From Minisyncoccota bacterium (lineage in GTDB: Bacteria; Patescibacteriota; Minisyncoccia; 2-02-FULL-40-12; GWA2-44-9): 64,000 bases of DNA. The stretch spans positions 405,168 through 469,167 of the forward strand of contig CP129474.1 in the NCBI GenBank assembly GCA_030583765.1, in the 5' to 3' direction. The notes below the pieces were generated by a model. That model did no database searches, was not told the DNA's origin, and was given only the letters and a program-made list of their open reading frames with translations. Made by a program: the position numbers and the translations under genes. How positions within the stretch are numbered: position 1 is the first letter of the stretch; each line of letters begins with the position of its first letter. Shown piece after piece: positions 5,441-38,195 of this stretch.

Positions 5441-5700
5441 GATGTTGGTGACACAGTTGGTGACACAGTTGGTGACACGTGTCATGGCACTAGTGTCACG
5501 AAAACCACGTGACACTATATTTCGTGACACCATGAAAAAGTCATTATATTTTGGCCGTTTCTCCATACAATCGTCAGGGAGATGACACCAAAGGTGTCAT
5601 GGTGTCACTAAATATATTGAGGTGTCACACATGGTGTCGCGTGACACCATGTCACCTATCGTGACGCTGACATATCCACATTTTTGTGTTGACGCTATAT
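5441..5700. repeat. Array 1 of the palindromic heptamer GTGWCAC (about 15 copies in both orientations at about 10-11 bp periodicity, including the 3x tandem 12-mer GTTGGTGACACA)
   Basis: The copies were counted directly in the sequence. The array shares the 17-bp segment CGTGACACCATGAAAAA with array 2. Confidence 0.8.
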
Positions 5701-5897: not shown

Positions 5898-6257
5898 ATG
5901 GACCACGCATCGCTAAAGGCGTTACAGCAAAAACTCGAAGCAGAAAGGGGCGTACTCAAAGAGCGCCTGCGTGAGGTTGGAGTTGAAAATCCAGCGGTTC
6001 CCGGCGATTTCGAGCCAACGCTTCCTAATTATGGCGATGAATACGACGACACAGTAAACGAATCCACTGATTTAGACGCAAATATAGCCGTTGTTTCCGA
6101 GCTTGAGCGGCGATTAAAAGAAATAGAGATTGCACTTGGGAGAATCGAGAACGGTACCTATGGGGCGTGCACGACCTGTTCGACAAAAATAGCAGAAGAA
6201 AGGCTCCACGCGGTCCCTACCGCTGCGCTCTGCAGCACGTGCGCCCAGAAGCTTTAA
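5898..6257 (+). CDS. TraR/DksA-family C4 zinc-finger protein
   Basis: The C-terminal CTTCSTKIAEERLHAVPTAALCSTCAQ is a CxxC-x17-CxxC zinc finger preceded by a coiled-coil-like region. A -10 TATAAT at 5884-5889 sits only 8 nt upstream of the ATG, suggesting a leaderless or very short-leader mRNA. Confidence 0.7.
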   Translation: MDHASLKALQQKLEAERGVLKERLREVGVENPAVPGDFEPTLPNYGDEYDDTVNESTDLDANIAVVSELERRLKEIEIALGRIENGTYGACTTCSTKIAEERLHAVPTAALCSTCAQKL

Positions 6258-6276
6258 AAGCCCCAATGCGGGGCTT

Positions 6277-7806
6277 TTGTGTATGCCAACACGTATTCGA
6301 TCAGCTGGCATTGTAGGCATAGAAGCATCTCCTATCGATGTCGAGGTAGACGCTGTCCCAGGAATACACTCTTTCCTTCTCGTTGGATTGCCCGATAAAG
6401 CAGTGCAAGAATCGAAAGATCGAATAAGCGCGGCTGTGCGCAATAGCTCTTTCGCTCCGCCAAGCGCAAAGCACAAGCGTATTACGATCAGCCTAGCTCC
6501 AGCTGATTTACGAAAAGAAGGGCCCGCCTTCGATCTTCCCATTGCCCTTGGATACCTCGCAGAAACCAAGCAAATACAAGGAGATTGGAGTAACACGCTT
6601 TTTGCTGGGGAGCTTGGACTTGATGGCTCACTGCGCCCTATCCGCGGAGCGCTTCCGCTTGCCCTGTGTGCTCGGGCGGAGGGCGCTCAAGAAGTTGTAT
6701 TGCCCGTCGAAAATGCTCGCGAATGTGCGTGGATTGAAGGGATCTCCATAGTTGGCGCCAGGTCGTTGGGGGAAGTTGTTGCGCACATTATGCAAACAGT
6801 ACGATTAACAAAATGCACGGCGACTATCCGTGATGAGGTAGACGTACATGATCCCTTTGAACATATTGTAGGCCAGGATTCTGCAAAGCGCGCGCTCGTT
6901 GTCGCGGCGGCAGGAGGGCACAACGTGCTGATGTTCGGAGCTCCAGGGTCCGGGAAGACGCTCCTTGCGCGGGCTCTTGCGAGCCTTCTTCCTCCGCTTG
7001 AACACCAAGAAATGCTGGACGTAGCACGCATTTATAGCGCCGCAGGCCTACTCTCCGGAGACGCTGTTCCACGAAGGCGCCCATTTCGTAATCCGCACCA
7101 CACCGCCTCGGCAACTGCTATTATTGGCGGCGGAGCCATCCCCCGCCCTGGGGAAATTAGCTTAGCGCACCGAGGAGTCCTGTTTCTTGATGAACTGCCC
7201 GAGTTTCCCCGCTCGGTTTTAGAAAGCCTACGCCAACCACTCGAAGATGGTGTTGTGACAATCGCGAGAGCTTCTGGGTCAGCAACGCTTCCCGCCCAAT
7301 GCATGCTCGTTGCTGCGATGAATCCATGCCCTTGCGGCAACGCTGGGGATCCAGAGCTTGAGTGCGTGTGCTCTGGTGCGCACATTGCGCGGTACGCAAA
7401 GAAAGTTTCAGGACCGCTACTGGACCGACTGGATATTCAGGTGCGCGTTCCCCGAGAAGTGCGCGCATCATTTAAAAAGGACGTAGCGCCTAATGCTGTG
7501 ATAAATATGCGCGCGAGGGTTGCGCTTGCGTGGCAGATGCAAAAGGAAAGGAACGCTCATTTCGGTATTTTGCGAAACAGCGACATTCGCCACGGTTTTA
7601 TTCACGATGTATGCGCACTTTCTGATGGCGCCGAGCGACTACTTGAGTCTTCTGCGAGGGCATTTAAGCTCTCGATGCGGAGCATTCACCGGATTCAAAA
7701 AATTGCTAGAACTGTCGCTGATTTAGACGGCAAGGCGTGTGTTGAAGAGGGGCATGTAGCCGAGGCGGTGCAATTGCGCACATCCGACATGGTGTCAGCA
7801 ACCTGA
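6277..7806 (+). CDS. comM: Mg-chelatase-like AAA+ ATPase of the YifB/ComM family (competence protein ComM)
   Basis: 509 aa with a Lon-protease-like N-terminal region, Walker A GAPGSGKT, and MLVAAMNPCPCG, the hallmark of YifB/ComM. Confidence 0.9.
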   Translation: MCMPTRIRSAGIVGIEASPIDVEVDAVPGIHSFLLVGLPDKAVQESKDRISAAVRNSSFAPPSAKHKRITISLAPADLRKEGPAFDLPIALGYLAETKQIQGDWSNTLFAGELGLDGSLRPIRGALPLALCARAEGAQEVVLPVENARECAWIEGISIVGARSLGEVVAHIMQTVRLTKCTATIRDEVDVHDPFEHIVGQDSAKRALVVAAAGGHNVLMFGAPGSGKTLLARALASLLPPLEHQEMLDVARIYSAAGLLSGDAVPRRRPFRNPHHTASATAIIGGGAIPRPGEISLAHRGVLFLDELPEFPRSVLESLRQPLEDGVVTIARASGSATLPAQCMLVAAMNPCPCGNAGDPELECVCSGAHIARYAKKVSGPLLDRLDIQVRVPREVRASFKKDVAPNAVINMRARVALAWQMQKERNAHFGILRNSDIRHGFIHDVCALSDGAERLLESSARAFKLSMRSIHRIQKIARTVADLDGKACVEEGHVAEAVQLRTSDMVSAT

Positions 7807-9985: not shown

Positions 9986-10831
9986 ATGGCAAAGAATGCT
10001 ATTGGTGTACACGTATCAATTGCAGGGGGCATAGAAAATGCTCCTAGTCGTGCGGCAGAAGAAGGGTGCGAAACGTTTCAATGCTTTACGCGCTCTCCTC
10101 AAGGCGGCCCGGTAGCTGAACTCACCAAAGAAACAATTACAGCTTTCCAATCTGCAATGCGCGAGCACGGCTTTTCTCGGTTTGTGGTCCACGCTCCATA
10201 CATTATTAATCTCGCATCTGATACTCCGCGTACGCGCCATGGGTCGGTAAGTATCCTTCGGAAAGAACTTGAGCGCGCCAGCGTACTCGGTGCGCAGTAT
10301 GTCATGTTCCACCCCGGATCCTACGGAGAAGCAACGCTTGAAGAGGGGATGGAGCGAGTAAAAAAGTCGCTCCATGAAATTCTCGATGGCTATACCGGAA
10401 TGACACAACTCCTCATAGAGATCTCGGCTGGTGCGGGACATGTGATGGGCAGCACGTTCCAAGAGGTAGGGGAGATGGTGCGCTCTGTTTCCCGGTTCGA
10501 TGCATTTGGCGGCGTCTGTTTTGATACGTGCCACGCGTTCGCATCGGGGTATGACTTTCGGACGTCAGAAGGCGCAGCGGCAATGCTTTCAGATTTTGAT
10601 ACTCACATTGGATTGCGCTTTTTAAAGATGAGCCACGTGAACGATTCACAAACGCCGCTTGGCGGAAAGAAGGATCGGCACGAACACATAGGCGCCGGGC
10701 ACGTGGGGGAGGATGGAATAAAGACCATTCTTACAACTCCCGCATTCTCTGCGATAGATTGGATTCTCGAAACAGAGCCAGGGGGGAGAGAGGGAGATCT
10801 CAAAAAGCTCAAAGAAATGCGCGAAAAATAA
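9986..10831 (+). CDS. nfo: Endonuclease IV (apurinic/apyrimidinic endonuclease)
   Basis: The IGVHVSIAGG start, FVVHAPYIINLAS, and His/Asp/Glu metal ligands spaced as in the Nfo TIM barrel. Confidence 0.88.
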   Translation: MAKNAIGVHVSIAGGIENAPSRAAEEGCETFQCFTRSPQGGPVAELTKETITAFQSAMREHGFSRFVVHAPYIINLASDTPRTRHGSVSILRKELERASVLGAQYVMFHPGSYGEATLEEGMERVKKSLHEILDGYTGMTQLLIEISAGAGHVMGSTFQEVGEMVRSVSRFDAFGGVCFDTCHAFASGYDFRTSEGAAAMLSDFDTHIGLRFLKMSHVNDSQTPLGGKKDRHEHIGAGHVGEDGIKTILTTPAFSAIDWILETEPGGREGDLKKLKEMREK

Positions 10832-32798: not shown

Positions 32799-32885
32799 TG
32801 GTGCCCGGGGTGGGAATCGAACCCACACGGCCTTTCGGCCACATCATTTTAAGTGACGTGCGTCTGCCAGTTTCGCCACCCGGAC
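32799..32885 (-). tRNA. tRNA-Leu (anticodon UAA), type II with a long variable arm, CCA encoded
   Basis: Acceptor GTCCGGG/CCCGGGC, anticodon loop CTTAAAA, variable arm TGGCCGAAAGGCCG, and T-arm GTGGGTTCGATTCCCAC. Confidence 0.85.
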
Positions 32886-33356
32886 TTTGCTTTTGTTTTT
32901 TCCTCGATGCGTTGCCTGAAGGCTATGACAATTAGGGCAAAGAATGCGTAAGTTTTCAATCCTATTATCGCTGTGGTCGCCGTTTATATGATCAAGCTCG
33001 ACTGGTATTCTGCCATCTTTTGCAGTTTTTGCCCAGCTGCACTCCTCGCATTGTGGCTGTTTTAATCCTGCCAAGAAAAGACGCTTTTTTAACTTAAAAC
33101 TTTGGAAAGCGCTACCACGCACAAGGATGTCTTCTAGTGTTCTACGTGGTTTCCCGATGCCTCGGAGACCCTTATTCCACGCAGATCCAGTGAAATGATC
33201 TATGGGAACTTGTAGCGCTGTTAGCCTCGCCTTAATGCTTTGGTAGTTCCCGCCGGCGGGGATGAGGTTGAGGCGACTAATAACTTCACGGATGCTTTTG
33301 CTCCGTTGTGTGGCTGTGCGAAGTTTAGCGTCGCTCCACGTGCGTCCTCTTGGCAT
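32844..33356 (-). CDS. Free-standing HNH endonuclease (homing-endonuclease-like), inserted between tRNA genes
   Basis: ELDHINGDHSDNRIENLRILCPNCHS carries the HNH His-Asn-His and Cys4 motif. The last roughly 40 nt of the ORF overlap the 5' half of tRNA-Leu. GC is lower than the flanks. Confidence 0.8.
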   Translation of the reverse strand: MPRGRTWSDAKLRTATQRSKSIREVISRLNLIPAGGNYQSIKARLTALQVPIDHFTGSAWNKGLRGIGKPRRTLEDILVRGSAFQSFKLKKRLFLAGLKQPQCEECSWAKTAKDGRIPVELDHINGDHSDNRIENLRILCPNCHSLQATHRGKNKSKVRVAKLADARHLK

Positions 33357-33495: not shown

Positions 33496-35061
33496 TTATG
33501 AAAGTGCTTGGGCAACTTTCTCTTCAGTGTATGCCTCTAGAATGTCTCCTTCAGCGATTTCGCGTTGTGCGCCGGTGATATCAATGCGCAGACCCGCTTC
33601 TAACCCCTCGCGGACATCTGCGGCATCTTCCTTATTATGCTGGAGCTGGGTGAGCTTGCCAACATATGCATCGCCAACGCGTAAGAGGGTGCCGCGGCTC
33701 ATCTTTCCTGAAGTTACGCGCCCACCCACAATACATGACCGCCCCTCTTTTTTAAAGACTGCTAAAATGCGCAACTTTCCTTGGGCGGTTGCGATTGTTT
33801 CGGGTTCGAGAAGTCCTGCCATTGCCTCTCGCACGGCATTGACCAATTCATAGATAATATCAAACGTGTGAATCGAAACTTTTTCTCGTTCTGCGAGCTT
33901 TTCAACGGATGCGCCAGCGCTTACACGAAATCCAAAAATTGCTGCTTGGCTTGTACGTGCTGTGCGCACGTCAGCATCGGTGATAGAGCCAACGCCGTAA
34001 TCTAAAACCGTAATACCTACGCGAGTAGAGCGGATCGCGCGCAGTGCACTCTCAAGCGCCTCAAGAGAACTCGTAACGTCAGCGCGGAGAATGATGGGAA
34101 GCGTTTTCTCATATGCTGGCGTATCTGCCATCGCTTCTTTCAAAAACTGGAAGAGGGGAGCAATGTTTATGTTGGTATCGCGAGCTTCTTCCGCTTCTTC
34201 CTTTGTGGCTCGCGCATGGAGTTCACGACCAATAATAGGGGCCTCATTCCAGCCGGTGATGAGTATTGGTTGTGAGGGAACCGCTTCGGTCATAGACGCG
34301 CCCGTGAAGTCTTCGAGTGAGCGAATCTTTGCAACCATAGTGCCCACCGACACCCAGTCGCCAGTGTGTACGGTACCTTTCGTGACGAGCGCCGTTGCTA
34401 CAAATCCTCGGCGCTTGTCGAGGTGTGATTCAATAATAATGCCTTCGCCGGGAACGGCTCGTTCATCGGGGAGTTCGGCGAGGTCTGCTACCAACAGCAC
34501 CATGTCGAGTAGCTCATCAATGCCCGTGCCGTTCTTGGCGGAAATTTCTACAGCGGGCACGGTGCCGCCCCATTCTTCTACGAGCACTGACTCTTGGGCT
34601 AAGTCTTGTTTGACCTTTTGAGGGTTTGCGCCCTCGCGATCTACCTTATTAATAGCAACGACAAACGGAATTCCTGCCTCTTGAATGATAGAAATCGCTT
34701 CTTTCGTTTGTGGCTTGACGCTTTCATCGGCAGCAACCACAAGGATGGCGACATCGGCGACACGTGCGCCACGAGAGCGAATGGCGGTGAACGCCTCGTG
34801 CCCGGGGGTGTCCAAAAAGGTAATGAGACGGTTCCGTGCGGTGGCTTGGTAGGCTCCAATATGCTGGGTGATGCCTCCTGATTCGCGCTCAGCAACGCGC
34901 GTCTTACGAATGGTATCGAGAAGCTTTGTTTTGCCATGATCCACATGCCCAAGTACAACCACGATAGGTGGGCGTGCGGCTTGTGTGTTTGGTGTAGATG
35001 CTGGTGCCATAGTGAGCGACTCACCATACCACGCTTTTTTGGCGTTGACAATGAAACTCAT
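33496..35061 (-). CDS. infB: Translation initiation factor IF-2 (short form, G domain to C-terminus)
   Basis: [28 protein letters not shown], and a C-terminal beta-barrel region; 521 aa. Confidence 0.9.
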
Positions 35062-35102: not shown

Positions 35103-36191
35103 TTAGAAAAGGCTCCGTTGCGCGGGGTGCTCCCGGAGGCCGCGGATGATCAGCTCACCGCGGACGTAGTACGGAGCAGCCGGGATAGTGAACCGGCACG
35201 TGTCTTGCACGGGACACGTGCGACACGATCGTTCGAATGCCCGGGTTTGGGCTTCATCCCACGTGACTGCGAGCGGGGTGAGCTCTGTTTTTCTTCCGCC
35301 GCCCTTTCCGCGGTACACAGTTGTGTTGCCGGGATGTTGTGTGCAGACTGCGCGGGACAGTCCCCACACAACCTCGGAGAGGTGAACGGGATCTGTGGCG
35401 TGTGTGTGGGCGTACCACGAGAAGAAGTCACGCAGTGCCGAGAGGACGATCGGATGGAAGTAGTTGAGTTTTCCATTCTTTTCGCCTCCCTCGATGATGC
35501 GCACGATGTCGTGTGCGACCATGACGCGGAGCACATGGAAGTCGATGGGCGCGGGGAAGGTGAATGGATCTCCAAACCCGGCTTCAACCAAGAAGTAGAT
35601 CAGCATGCTGACCATCTTTTCTTGGAACCCAAGGAACCCGTGATGGTGCGGCTCGTACGCGCGCGCCTTTTTCTTCTTGTTTTGAATGCGCAGACACGCT
35701 TCTTCAAAGGTGGTAACGCCGTTCATGAGCGTGCGCGGGTCTGCGTCCCAGTGGTCGCGTAGCCGTCGGAAGTTCTCAACCCAGAACGAGCTAATCTCTT
35801 CACTGTTGAAGTTCAGGCCGTTACGGGCGAGGATGTCTCGAATCTCTACCGGATCGCAAGTACTCACGACTTCGGGACGAACCAGTTCCGGGCGCACTTC
35901 GTAGATGCGACTCAACGACTGTGCAGCCCTGTCACTTGTGATACCCCCTCGCATATAGAAACATAATGCGAAGAGGTAGCAGGCGTGGTCTCGATTGTCT
36001 GCGAACCCACCTCGGGGCAGATTCTCAGGGATCTGTGGCGGGAGAGCTTTCTTCAGAGTGAAGGGGAAGCTCTTTTCTCGAAACGCGCGCATGAGCGTGG
36101 TAAGGATCCGCGCACCATGTTCACGATCTACAACTATGCGCATTGGCACGGGCACCTCCTTTTCCTGCCAATAGGGCGGATTGAACCACAA
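35103..36191 (-). CDS. Hypothetical protein with a C-terminal Cys cluster (CRTCPVQDTCRF)
   Basis: A long ORF with coding-like composition and no motif I can name with confidence. The start is ambiguous (36191 or the internal Met at about 36143). Confidence 0.5.
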   Translation of the reverse strand: MWFNPPYWQEKEVPVPMRIVVDREHGARILTTLMRAFREKSFPFTLKKALPPQIPENLPRGGFADNRDHACYLFALCFYMRGGITSDRAAQSLSRIYEVRPELVRPEVVSTCDPVEIRDILARNGLNFNSEEISSFWVENFRRLRDHWDADPRTLMNGVTTFEEACLRIQNKKKKARAYEPHHHGFLGFQEKMVSMLIYFLVEAGFGDPFTFPAPIDFHVLRVMVAHDIVRIIEGGEKNGKLNYFHPIVLSALRDFFSWYAHTHATDPVHLSEVVWGLSRAVCTQHPGNTTVYRGKGGGRKTELTPLAVTWDEAQTRAFERSCRTCPVQDTCRFTIPAAPYYVRGELIIRGLREHPAQRSLF

Positions 36192-36230: not shown

Positions 36231-36905
36231 TTGTTAATGCGATATGGAGGAGGTGAAACAGTGCCTGCAGTATACACTGACGCACAACGCTCTGCGTTGA
36301 TCGGTCGTTTTTTCGTATTCGCCACGCGCAAGATGTTCGGGGGAAACCCTGCGCGCACGAAGGCTCTTGGGGATGGTGATCTCTGGAACTTCGCGGATGA
36401 GTGGGCGATCGAGGTCAAGGCAACCAACCACCTTGATAAGCCAAAAATCTTCTTGTGCCAGGCTCGCGCGTTCGCCGATGGCGGATGGCCGCTCCAGCAT
36501 CGTGTGGTGTGTACGTGGTTCTACCTGAACGGCTTGCGTCACAATGAGCGCATTCTCCGCGGCGCAAAGACGACACATCGGCTCGATACGCTTCTTGCGC
36601 ACCGAACGCGACTACTGGTTGTGTGTGATGCGACGACACTGCTCCGTTTCGCCGAGAGGTATGGGACATACACTGTCGTGCGCGATGGCGCGAGTGCTGA
36701 GATCGTTCACATGACTTATGCACGCATGCGCCAACACGCCGAGAATCCGCAATGCTTGCGATCCGAACTCGGGCTCGATAAGAGCCACGTGGCGAGCACA
36801 CGCGAAACAACACTTCGCTTTCGTGGGCGAGGGATGGCATTCACTATGTTGACGCTTGTCACGCGAGCAACGTACGATGCTCTGCGCTTTTCGGAAAAGT
36901 TCTAG
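36231..36905 (+). CDS. Hypothetical protein with a PD-(D/E)xK-like nuclease motif (GDGD...ADEWAIEVK)
   Basis: The D...E-x-K spacing is typical of the restriction-endonuclease fold. It is divergent from the upstream hypothetical gene. Confidence 0.45.
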   Translation: MLMRYGGGETVPAVYTDAQRSALIGRFFVFATRKMFGGNPARTKALGDGDLWNFADEWAIEVKATNHLDKPKIFLCQARAFADGGWPLQHRVVCTWFYLNGLRHNERILRGAKTTHRLDTLLAHRTRLLVVCDATTLLRFAERYGTYTVVRDGASAEIVHMTYARMRQHAENPQCLRSELGLDKSHVASTRETTLRFRGRGMAFTMLTLVTRATYDALRFSEKF

Positions 36906-37012
36906 CTCGCGCCCGCATTTCCTACGAAATGGGGGCGCGCTTTCTATAGCGCATGACTCGTTGCGTAAAGCCTATAATTCCAGTATAGTGTGACCCTAGG
37001 ATGCGGATATAT

Positions 37013-37104
37013 GGAGGCGTGTCAGAGTGGTCTAATGTACCTCTTTGCTAAAGAGGCAGGGGCGTTAAAACCCCTCGGAGGTTCGAATCCTCCCGCCTCC
37101 GCCA
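37013..37104 (+). tRNA. tRNA-Ser (anticodon GCU), type II, CCA encoded
   Basis: Acceptor GGAGGCG/CGCCTCC, anticodon loop TTGCTAA, long variable arm CAGGGGCGTTAAAACCCCTCG, and T-arm GGAGGTTCGAATCCTCC. Confidence 0.85.
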
Positions 37105-37142
37105 CACTAACAGAGACTGCCAAATGGCAGTCTCTGTTAGTG
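37105..37142. repeat. Perfect 17-bp palindrome CACTAACAGAGACTGCC-aaat-GGCAGTCTCTGTTAGTG immediately after tRNA-Ser
   Basis: Read directly from the sequence. It could be a terminator or processing hairpin, or a protein-binding site. Confidence 0.7.
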
Positions 37143-37189
37143 TTCTAGTGAATCCTTCCGCCGCTTTTGCTATAGTTCCTTCATGCATT

Positions 37190-37276
37190 GGAGAGGTGGC
37201 TGAGTGGTTGAAAGCAGCGGTTTACTAAACCGCCGGGCTCGCAAGAGCCTCGTGGGTTCGAATCCCACCCTCTCCG
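37190..37276 (+). tRNA. Ser-like type-II tRNA whose anticodon loop reads TTACTAA (apparent anticodon ACU); possibly tRNA-Ser with a G34A change, or a pseudo/variant tRNA
   Basis: Acceptor GGAGAGG/CCTCTCC-G, 3-bp D-stem GCT/AGC, anticodon stem GCGGT/ACCGC, long variable arm CGGGCTCGCAAGAGCCTCG, and T-arm GTGGGTTCGAATCCCAC. CCA is not encoded. Confidence 0.6.
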
Positions 37277-37431
37277 CATATGCTTTTGAACATGCCTTTA
37301 GGCATATTTAAAAGCATCTAGTGTGGAAAGTGGGGCGGCATTCGAACGGCCGGAGTGATGTTGCGTCACCAGATGCAACCACGAGGCCCGGCCCTGAGGC
37401 TATGACGAGCGACGGCGAGTCAGAGACCGAA

Positions 37432-37454
37432 GGCGAACCCCACCCTCTCCGCCA
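37432..37454 (+). repeat. 23-bp imperfect direct copy of a tRNA 3' end (GGCGAACCCCACCCTCTCCGCCA, compared with GGTTCGAATCCCACCCTCTCCGCA of the upstream tRNA); att-like scar
   Basis: Found by direct comparison with positions 37254-37278. Confidence 0.55.
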
Positions 37455-37463
37455 AAATTGAAG

Positions 37464-38195
37464 TTATATCTCCCGCGCGATGACGAGCGCGGAGACAGAG
37501 GAAGCGCCTGCGGCGCGTAAAGCTGTGGCGCACGCATCAAGTGTGGCGCCAGTCGTGCATACGTCATCAATGAGCAGAATACTTTTTCCTTTTACGAGCG
37601 AAGGGTGTGGGCATGAGAATAAATTCTGCACTGATAAGAATCGCTCGGTACGCGAATGGTGCACTTGGGTTTCAGTGTGGTGGGTGCGCATAAGTGTGGC
37701 CGGCGCGTAGATCTGCTGTGTGGCGTGCGCAATAATCTCTGCAATGCGCCCTGCTTGGTTGAACCCGCGCCAGTTTAGGCGCCGCGTGTGGAGAGGCACG
37801 GGAACAATGAGGGGGTTTTCGGAAAAGATATTGCGCGTACGCGACATGCGCTTGAGTGCGCGCAACACTACGCGGCCGAGCGGGCGGTGCAAGTCTTCAA
37901 TGCATCCATACTTATATGCGTGAAGTGCGGTGCGCACGGCAGGGTGTTGAAAGTGGGTGGCGGCGTAGAGCGCACTAATATTCCATTCTGGAGCGCACGA
38001 GGAACACGCTACGCCTTGTGGTGTGGCGCGAGCGCAGCCAATACATTGTCCGGATGCGCTCACAGGAATGCGGCCGGCACACGCGCGACAGAGGTAGCGA
38101 TCGCGGGGATCGTAGGGGAGCGCGTCACACGCGACGCATCGCGGCGGGAAAATGGCATCGGCAAGGGTGGTGCACAGCTGGGCGATGGAGGGCAT
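37464..38195 (-). CDS. comFC: ComF-family protein (ComFC; phosphoribosyltransferase-like competence protein with N-terminal double zinc ribbon)
   Basis: An N-terminal zinc-ribbon region with CxxC pairs (CVAC...CRAC...CIGC...CSSC), and a C-terminal PRTase motif ILLIDDVCTTGATL. Confidence 0.8.
   Translation of the reverse strand: MPSIAQLCTTLADAIFPPRCVACDALPYDPRDRYLCRACAGRIPVSASGQCIGCARATPQGVACSSCAPEWNISALYAATHFQHPAVRTALHAYKYGCIEDLHRPLGRVVLRALKRMSRTRNIFSENPLIVPVPLHTRRLNWRGFNQAGRIAEIIAHATQQIYAPATLMRTHHTETQVHHSRTERFLSVQNLFSCPHPSLVKGKSILLIDDVCTTGATLDACATALRAAGASSVSALVIAREI

Follow-up and report, generated by a model that had tools for sequence, protein, structure and literature searches.

The locus described here lies in a 64,000-nt stretch of the genome of a Minisyncoccota bacterium (GenBank contig CP129474.1, forward strand, positions 405,168 to 469,167; hereafter the window, which supplies the coordinates unless another contig is named). 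It contains a pair of serine tRNA genes, one of which carries the anticodon ACU. Eight tRNAs were detected in the 64-kb window with ARAGORN, including tRNA-Ser(gct) at 37013-37104 and tRNA-Ser(act) at 37190-37277. The genes flanking the pair encode, according to Pfam, a short translation initiation factor IF-2 (521 aa), a ComFC-like protein, PilM, PilO and a PilB-type ATPase. The features around the pair are as follows.

37013-37104, plus strand: tRNA-Ser(GCU), type II with encoded CCA, the canonical AGY decoder (ARAGORN; Rfam tRNA model, 51 bits over 37013-37101, gathering score 29).
37104-37143, no strand assigned: hairpin H1, a perfect 19-bp palindrome abutting the 3' end of tRNA-Ser(GCU) (repeat finder).
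37150-37162, plus strand: remnant copy of the tRNA-Ser(GCU) 3' end, GAATCCTTCCGCC, 12 of 13 nt identical to 37085-37097 (repeat finder).
37190-37277, plus strand: tRNA-Ser(ACU), type II, with G73, the loop UUACUAA and no encoded CCA, ending ...CCGC/ATATG (ARAGORN; Rfam, 60.6 bits; fold).
37280-37317, no strand assigned: hairpin H2, an 18-bp imperfect palindrome between the ACU tRNA and element X, with arms at 37280-37297 and 37300-37317 (repeat finder).
37321-37454, plus strand: element X, a structured element of about 130 nt (z-score of the fold; RNAalifold consensus; covariance model R1, 118 bits).
37434-37452, plus strand: 3'-end direct repeat, the 3' strand of the closing helix of X plus tail, corresponding to the tRNA from T loop to C74 (repeat finder).
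37464-38195, minus strand: ComFC-like gene (double zinc ribbon and phosphoribosyltransferase; Pfam), convergent with the tRNAs and followed by the pilM/pilO/pilB operon.

Both serine tRNAs of the original prediction, which had been made from the sequence of the window, were called by ARAGORN as gct and act, the former at the same coordinates and in agreement with Rfam. The latter had been described as a second type-II tRNA with Ser-like arms and a TTACTAA loop, and this description was borne out, the anticodon being read as ACT. Its score against the Rfam tRNA family RF00005 (60.6 bits over 37190-37276; gathering score 29) is above the 51 bits of its GCU neighbor, and it folds into a clean cloverleaf with a variable arm of 6 bp. 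The serine features (long variable arm, G73, 3-bp D stem, G1-C72 and G2-C71) are kept across 25 aligned sequences of the family described below. The missing CCA is not a defect, because an encoded CCA is also absent from others of the window tRNAs (4 of the 8 in all). A sequencing error at the anticodon, which had been considered, is excluded because an unrelated metagenome contig (L209), with different flanks, carries a tRNA that is identical through A34. Same-species contigs in the Logan collection never span 37128-37247, and the anticodon was confirmed from the metagenome loci. The canonical AGY-reading tRNA-Ser, whose existence had been left as a question, is present as tRNA-Ser(GCU) 86 nt upstream of the ACU tRNA. 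Apart from the two tRNAs, Rfam searches run at gathering thresholds and, over 36880-37620, at E <= 10 turned up nothing but chance matches (sX4, plastid untranslated-region motifs and microRNAs). As a separate candidate, tmRNA was rejected, since ARAGORN finds none and tmRNA_permuted reaches 13 bits as against a gathering score of 47.

The ACU tRNA belongs to a conserved family. In a metagenome scan, the body of the ACU tRNA was used as a pattern, with anticodon stem, T arm and acceptor 3' strand fixed and with A or G allowed at position 34. At least 120 loci were obtained, and among the matches listed 81 carry G34 and 39 carry A34. Together with the window, the A34 loci make 40 loci with 28 distinct ACU sequences, across which A34 is invariant. 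When 25 distinct ACU sequences were aligned, 99.1% of cells were paired, as compared with 34-60% for slid partners, and 10 pairs were changed on both sides, comprising the whole D stem, the whole variable arm and pair 7:66. These compensatory pairs cover every helix left free by the search pattern, and none of 500 shuffles reached the observed values. From the level of pairing, the 10 compensatory pairs and the shuffles it follows that the ACU tRNA is under selection and is not a pseudogene.

Within these 40 loci, tRNA-Ser(gct) is found near the ACU gene in 20, always on its 5' side (13 divergent, 7 tandem) and usually at a distance of 80-120 nt, and in one locus (L124) all five serine anticodons are present. 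The A34 loci carry cellular genes, including those for RecG, TyrRS, GroEL, FtsZ, a penicillin-binding protein and ComFC. The best named relatives of one TyrRS (L159) are from metagenome-assembled genomes (MAGs) of Patescibacteria and Minisyncoccia, this single protein search being the basis of the taxonomy of most ACU loci. One of these MAGs, a Patescibacteria MAG at NCBI (GCA_040384165.1, contig JAWVHB010000245.1), has a divergent act/gct pair 100 nt apart, and the genes for RecG, TyrRS, ComFC, PilM, PilO and PilB in this region form the same neighborhood as in the window. The ACU loci also contain tRNA-Ile(UAU) (L113, L145 and L159) and tRNA-Arg(GCG) (L124, L138 and L152). The use of Ile(UAU) and Arg(GCG), instead of the lysidine-dependent Ile(CAU) and the inosine-dependent Arg(ACG), hints that decoding in these Patescibacteria has little need of tRNA modification.

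In several Yanofskybacteria-like relatives, the tRNA-Ser(GCU) adjoining the IF-2 gene has the same body as the ACU tRNA (acceptor GGAGAGG, T stem GUGGG, anticodon stem GCGGU), with G at position 34. The GCU tRNA of the window itself belongs to a second GCU lineage, distinct from this body. The comparison of bodies supports the view that tRNA-Ser(ACU) would be, in the evolutionary sense, a G34A derivative of a tRNA-Ser(GCU) lineage. Of the suggestion that it is a recent G34A derivative, the descent thus holds and the recency does not, A34 being invariant in a family with compensatory stem changes.

The same anticodon is found in phages. When IMG/VR was scanned with a less strict pattern (GGTTTACTAAACC and the T loop, separated by a gap), at least 120 viral loci were obtained; those listed were all called Ser(act), with 72 distinct sequences. 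The viral genes lie mostly in tRNA arrays together with tRNAs for Asn, Thr, Gln, Arg(tct), Glu and Lys, and only one Ser(gct) was seen among the listed loci. AGT is the most used serine codon in them (19.3 per 1000). One gene of the isolated Rhizobium phage RHph_TM30 (MN988521.1) is annotated as tRNA-Ser(act); the other isolated phages checked by BLAST carry tga, gct, cga or gga, act being limited, among those checked, to Rhizobium phages. The original statement that an ACU anticodon is essentially unknown therefore fails, since many viral contigs carry this anticodon and one isolated phage has it in its annotation. Full-text literature searches gave no description of a natural bacterial tRNA-Ser(ACU) and no paper discussing such a tRNA in phages or Patescibacteria, and a 2026 preprint describes anticodons starting with A other than ACG as absent across bacteria. 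An ACU serine tRNA in a split codon box is thus widespread and annotated in phage, yet undescribed in the literature found, and its proposed function is deduced from sequence.

Behind the ACU tRNA, a repeat of its 3' end had been noted about 150 bp downstream. It is present at 37434-37452, within 2 nt of the place first proposed. The repeat CGAA[T/C]CCCACCCTCTCCGC is found at 37259-37277 and 37434-37452 with 18 of 19 nt identical, and such a twofold match occurred in none of 100 shuffles. This direct-repeat family of tRNA 3' ends has three members (37084-37102, 37259-37277 and 37434-37452). In same-species Logan contigs, which come from several sequencing runs, the stretch 37247-37463 is either identical or differs by three single-nucleotide polymorphisms (SNPs), and in two of them (L088 and L089) one SNP makes the repeat perfect (19 of 19 nt). 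The repeat is therefore retained in independent assemblies of the same species. The hairpins said to occupy the interval correspond to one imperfect hairpin of 18 bp (37280-37317).

The stretch behind the ACU tRNA folds better than shuffled sequences (z = -4.9), and the RNAalifold consensus of element X shows a closing helix P1, formed between a 5' GGGAUUCG strand and a 3' CGAAUCCC strand, and two long hairpins. In P1, the G-rich/AUUCG 5' strand pairs with the CGAA(Y)CCC 3' strand, and the 3' tail of X repeats the end of the upstream tRNA, namely its acceptor 3' strand followed by G and CCA. The direct repeat of the original prediction is the 3' strand of element X. X is conserved at other loci, being located upstream of the ACU tRNA in L188, after tRNA-Ser(GCU) in L095 (the closest relative of the window) and after each serine tRNA in L170. 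A covariance model (R1) built from eight copies finds 13 copies (window, L088, two in L170, L188, L095, L005, two in L152, L192, L193, L182 and L025). ARAGORN calls a tRNA just upstream of 11 of them, in most cases with a hairpin in between. For the copies of L188, which follows a decayed tRNA remnant, and L025, no tRNA was called upstream. In the alignment of the 13 copies, 90.9% of cells are paired, as against 69.6% in shuffles and at most 47% with slid partners, and 23 of 32 pairs show changes on both sides, which none of 500 shuffles reached; this alignment had been fitted to the model. The 3' strand and tail of X copy the last 20-25 nt or so of the tRNA upstream in most units, whether of Ser-GCU type, of Ser-ACU type or, in L005, of tRNA-Lys; L182 is an exception, with an X end of Ser-GCU type behind an ACU tRNA. 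A hairpin at the position of H2 is present in most tRNA-X units and is not evident in a few (L193 and L182). No Rfam family matches X at E <= 10 (36880-37620). One pattern match to X in viral contigs was a chance match and was rejected by the covariance model.

Some further observations concern the surroundings of X. In L192, an additional stretch of about 180 nt (10079-10260, minus strand), starting with GGTGGGATTCGAAC and ending with GAGATTCCCACCCTCTCCG, lies between tRNA-Ser and X and looks like a second, divergent X-like unit in tandem. In L095, an open reading frame (ORF) of 153 aa without family assignment (6174-6635, minus strand) has as its start codon the ATG of the CCGCATATG junction, immediately behind X. 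The same CCGC/ATATG junction is found behind the ACU tRNA in the window and ahead of the hairpin in L188.

The same organization can be recognized behind tRNA-Ser(GCU). The inverted repeat reported there as 17 bp (37105-37142) is indeed perfect, and its length is 19 bp (37104-37143): the two arms of H1 (37104-37122 and 37125-37143) are 100% complementary over 19 nt each and separated by a 2-nt spacer. Homologous hairpins are located behind tRNA-Ser(GCU) in relatives, as the H1 region can be aligned with the hairpins that follow the tRNA in L170 and L095. Just after H1 comes the GAATCCTTCCGCC remnant, an item absent from the original list of features, and the equivalent place in L170 and L095 is occupied by a full X. 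By this comparison of sequences, GAATCCTTCCGCC at 37150-37162 looks like an X element with its body deleted. H1 is the hairpin of a tRNA-hairpin-X module behind tRNA-Ser(GCU), of which the X body is lost and GAATCCTTCCGCC is left.

Taking these findings together, we consider it fairly probable that the locus represents the tRNA-Ser(GCU)/tRNA-Ser(ACU) pair of a broad set of Patescibacteria, arranged here in tandem beside the ComFC-pilus operon, that the ACU tRNA is a functional fifth serine isoacceptor, and that the palindromes and the repeat belong to a tRNA-hairpin-X module.

As to the nature of X, we tentatively regard it as a trailer RNA, some probability being left for its being neither this nor the mobile element discussed below. 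X would be co-transcribed as the trailer of the tRNA upstream and set free when this trailer is removed, by RNase Z in the case of the CCA-less ACU tRNA. With its tRNA-like helix and terminal GCCA, X would acquire a defined, tRNA-style 3' end and could then be handled by the enzymes of tRNA 3'-end processing. This reading is favored by the constant position and orientation of X with respect to the tRNA, and by a structure kept through heavy divergence, even between copies within one genome. Because the two copies in each of two genomes (L170a/b and L152a/b) have diverged and yet retain the structure, selection on X is indicated rather than recent transposition.

Several observations weigh against a trailer RNA. 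In the paired columns of X, G.U pairs (13) do not outnumber A.C mismatches (15), which differs from the tRNA alignment and is unusual for an RNA, so that the transcribed strand and selection at the RNA level are not established; the alignment used for these counts was fitted to the model and favors the structure. Neither a promoter nor a terminator was found near X: the scan of the tRNA-X region gave no promoter, no T-run follows H1 or H2 as expected of intrinsic terminators, and no terminator-like site is present in 36850-37550. X is absent after the ACU tRNA of L095 and L345, the model finds none in 83 viral, MAG or phage loci, and decayed copies exist (37150-37162 in the window and a partial copy in L095). 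Such sporadic presence and decay would also fit a selfish element.

The original prediction had taken the repeat for the scar of integrase-mediated insertion or excision at a tRNA attachment (att) site. The repeat geometry does fit insertion into a tRNA 3' end, while debris of a lost island is missing, a conserved element of about 130 nt being found between the repeats. Also in relatives, where an island might have been expected at this place, the same element of about 130 nt is present and no island. A modified form of the idea, which we consider rather unlikely, is that X with its hairpin is, or forms the conserved end of, a miniature integrating element that inserts by site-specific recombination into the tRNA region from T loop to 3' end, duplicating about 19-25 nt and moving the original CCA end to the far side. 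A T-loop class of tRNA-gene integration sites was reportedly described by Williams in 2002, and the direct repeat, which spans the T loop to C74, corresponds to such a class. Four units (window, L152b, L193 and L182) show the CCA missing from the tRNA and GCCA plus flank at the X end, as expected for attL and attR. The X end matches whichever tRNA precedes it, tRNA-Lys included; X is sporadic and its copies are sometimes decayed; the locus is rearranged among relatives; and the lack of G.U excess over A.C fits selection at the DNA level. On the other hand, no integrase or recombinase was detected with Pfam and PHROGs in the ORFs scanned beside X of the window and L095, in agreement with the original remark that no integrase is adjacent. 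Copies within one genome are strongly diverged with pairing kept by compensatory changes, which is unexpected for a double-stranded att site, the CCA pattern in L095 and L170a is the reverse of that predicted, and a clean pair of sites, one filled and one empty but otherwise identical, did not turn up.

With respect to decoding, tRNA-Ser(ACU) most likely reads AGU with an unmodified A34. Seryl-tRNA synthetase does not use the anticodon. Because it ignores the anticodon and because the long variable arm and G73 are present, charging with serine is the default expectation, and the identity elements suggest that this enzyme would charge tRNA-Ser(ACU). The unmodified A34 would form a Watson-Crick pair with U, making the tRNA a dedicated AGU reader, and tRNA-Ser(GCU) would work alongside it, reading AGC and wobbling on AGU. 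The ACU tRNA would have descended from the tRNA-Ser(GCU) lineage and kept A34 over a long time, and phages with AT-rich genomes, in which AGU is the top serine codon, carry a like tRNA in their arrays. An engineered orthogonal ACU tRNA in E. coli behaved in this manner: AGU was read, AGC and AGA were below detection, AGG was read at 0.4%, and there was no sign of inosine (Schmitt et al. 2024, PMC11066159).

The codon usage gives weak support to an AGU reader, AGT/(AGT+AGC) being 0.57 in the ACU loci as compared with 0.35 in Yanofskybacteria-like loci that show only a GCU tRNA. Against such a specialized role it must be said that the AGU excess in the ACU loci is modest and partly follows the general T/C bias, that there is no apparent reason why AGU should need more than a G34 tRNA, and that the breadth of the family and its invariance outside A34 were partly imposed by the search pattern.

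Deamination of A34 to inosine, which the original prediction had raised as an A-to-I edit, would lead to reading of AGU, AGC and AGA and hence to ambiguous or reassigned decoding of AGA. In its favor, A34 in bacteria is normally tolerated only as inosine, in tRNA-Arg(ACG), and U33-A34-C35 and A37-A38 are common to the ACU loop and the TadA substrate. An engineered A34 Phe-tRNA(AAA), serving a two-fold box, is reported to have become I34 in E. coli (2026 preprint). We nevertheless judge deamination improbable; an I34 tRNA would misread AGA. The loop of the ACU tRNA is U33-A34-C35-U36, with U at position 36 where the TadA target has G (U33-A34-C35-G36 in tRNA-Arg(ACG)), and the engineered ACU tRNA, for which no inosine signal was reported, read neither AGC nor AGA detectably (PMC11066159). 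AGU, AGC, AGA and AGG are all in ordinary use in the window, AGA coexists with tRNA-Arg(UCU), which is encoded 29 nt upstream of the ACU tRNA in L095, and the CGN-box tRNAs visible in ACU loci are GCG and never ACG, hinting at no reliance on TadA. A motif scan of the window and the ACU loci for TadA gave no convincing match, but these sequences, with 64 kb from the genome of the window, cover far too little for an absence to be concluded.

That the ACU gene is a decaying or neutral duplicate of tRNA-Ser(GCU), either a pseudogene or a recent G34A copy, or an assembly error, is very improbable: it looks redundant with the canonical tRNA-Ser(GCU) 86 nt upstream and has no encoded CCA, but half of the window tRNAs share this lack, its Rfam score is higher than that of the GCU tRNA, the same sequence occurs in an independent metagenome (L209), and A34 is invariant across 28 distinct cellular sequences, with a cloverleaf maintained by compensatory changes, and 72 distinct viral ones.

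The wider neighborhood is conserved in part. The nearest IF-2 genes among GTDB species representatives are 55-60% identical and belong to Candidatus Yanofskybacteria and other Patescibacteria MAGs, which places the window in an uncultivated member of the Patescibacteria. These relatives have the gene order tRNA-Ser(gct), IF-2, tRNA-Cys, tRNA-Leu(taa), tRNA-Arg(ccg) in common. Near IF-2 in these relatives (at most 60% identity), no second serine tRNA was found, and the ACU tRNA is absent within 10 kb of IF-2. By synteny, the ComFC-like gene is a conserved neighbor of the tRNA-Ser pair in L095, L170, L124 and L345. L095 is collinear with the window from the pilus operon through ComFC. The window differs from it in two ways, an extra pair of orphan ORFs between IF-2 and tRNA-Ser(GCU) and a shift of the ACU tRNA from the IF-2 side to the tandem place behind the GCU tRNA, and in L170 the tandem tRNA-Ser pair is inverted relative to ComFC. 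Because of these differences, the original description of a rearranged tRNA locus is fair.

The two orphan ORFs (35103-36143, minus strand, 346 aa; 36237-36905, plus strand, 222 aa) match no Pfam or PHROGs family and no integrase. They had been pointed out as having atypical features, and they are located in a stretch of raised GC content (0.55-0.58, as against 0.48-0.54 in the surroundings). Both are present in the same-species contig L094 and absent at the equivalent place in L095, which gives them the look of an insertion, specific to the lineage, that separates IF-2 from tRNA-Ser(GCU). In the 222-aa protein, an E-V-K motif, noted by eye only, is reminiscent of PD-(D/E)XK nucleases. The 521-aa IF-2 (33496-35061, minus strand) consists of the GTPase and C-terminal domains without the long N-terminal region, consistent with a reduced genome of the Candidate Phyla Radiation. 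A free-standing HNH endonuclease ORF of 170 aa (32844-33356, minus strand; phrog_10822, E = 1e-38; Pfam HNH_3) lies between tRNA-Leu(taa) and tRNA-Cys and may encode a homing-type endonuclease within the tRNA cluster.

The tRNA pair was never assembled across in the Logan data. All same-species contigs on the right side (L081-L093) end at about 37247 or at 37274, in the T arm or 3' end of the ACU tRNA, and the contig on the left side ends within the first palindrome. The breaks are probably caused by k-mers shared with related tRNAs and by the palindrome. L094 is 99.98% identical to the window over 5.1 kb up to the CCA of tRNA-Ser(GCU) and then differs, its last 24 nt (5552-5575) reading ATTTTCACTTTTTGTGAAATCGTA, which is not in the window; this divergent end may be a strain-level structural variant or an assembly tip.

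Unmodified-A34 tRNAs are treated in current work as almost absent in prokaryotes and as effectively forbidden in two-fold boxes, for reasons described as an open puzzle (preprint 10.64898/2026.05.15.725136; PMC11066159); for the split AGN box, too, prokaryotes are held to have essentially no A34 (preprint 10.64898/2026.05.15.725136). Against this background, it is conceivable, and we propose with some reserve, that Patescibacteria and many phages keep a serine tRNA (ACU) with unmodified A34 as a dedicated AGU decoder beside tRNA-Ser(GCU) and, in a subset of genomes, an undescribed structured RNA X that ends in a copy of the tRNA 3' strand plus CCA and is matured or recognized like a tRNA. If so, tRNA-Ser(ACU) would be a natural and widespread departure from the rule that split boxes almost universally avoid anticodons starting with A, and a natural test case for the modification state of A34, for the avoidance of misreading of the arginine codons AGA and AGG, and for the advantage of a Watson-Crick AGU reader. 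In genome annotation, ACU genes should not be discarded as pseudogenes, and for phage-host biology the apparent preference of phages for ACU over GCU is of interest. X would add a new family of tRNA-linked structured RNAs or mini-elements, and would account for many apparent att scars behind tRNA genes in these genomes.

Among known systems, the tRNA att sites of integrase-bearing islands and prophages resemble the locus in the direct repeat from T loop to tRNA 3' end and in the downstream displacement of the CCA end. In the window, however, no integrase was identified, and only about 156 bp separate the repeats, occupied by a conserved structured family with compensatory changes. The tRNA-linked repeats of the E. 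coli tyrT operon contain a downstream repeat of the last 19 nt or so of the tRNA, CCA included, that is released as a small RNA, the rtT RNA. As a downstream sequence repeating a tRNA 3' end with CCA, rtT RNA may, by analogy, serve as a precedent for a trailer RNA. X differs from it in having no match to RF00391 at E <= 10 (36880-37620), a long hairpin in front and its own fold of two hairpins and a closing helix. The phage tRNA-Ser(act) (RHph_TM30) shares with the window tRNA the loop UUACUAA and a type-II serine-like body (about 78% identity); the phage genes are single genes in arrays without a GCU partner, whereas the window gene is chromosomal and syntenic with tRNA-Ser(GCU) and ComFC. 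A cellular parallel is tRNA-Thr(AGU) of Mycoplasma capricolum with its unmodified A34 (Andachi et al. 1987, as cited in PMC11066159), which is likewise a natural bacterial elongator with A34 outside tRNA-Arg(ACG), in a reduced genome and in coexistence with an isoacceptor of the same box. As presented there, the Mycoplasma tRNA serves a four-codon box in which misreading is harmless, whereas ACU sits in the AGN box that is split between serine and arginine.

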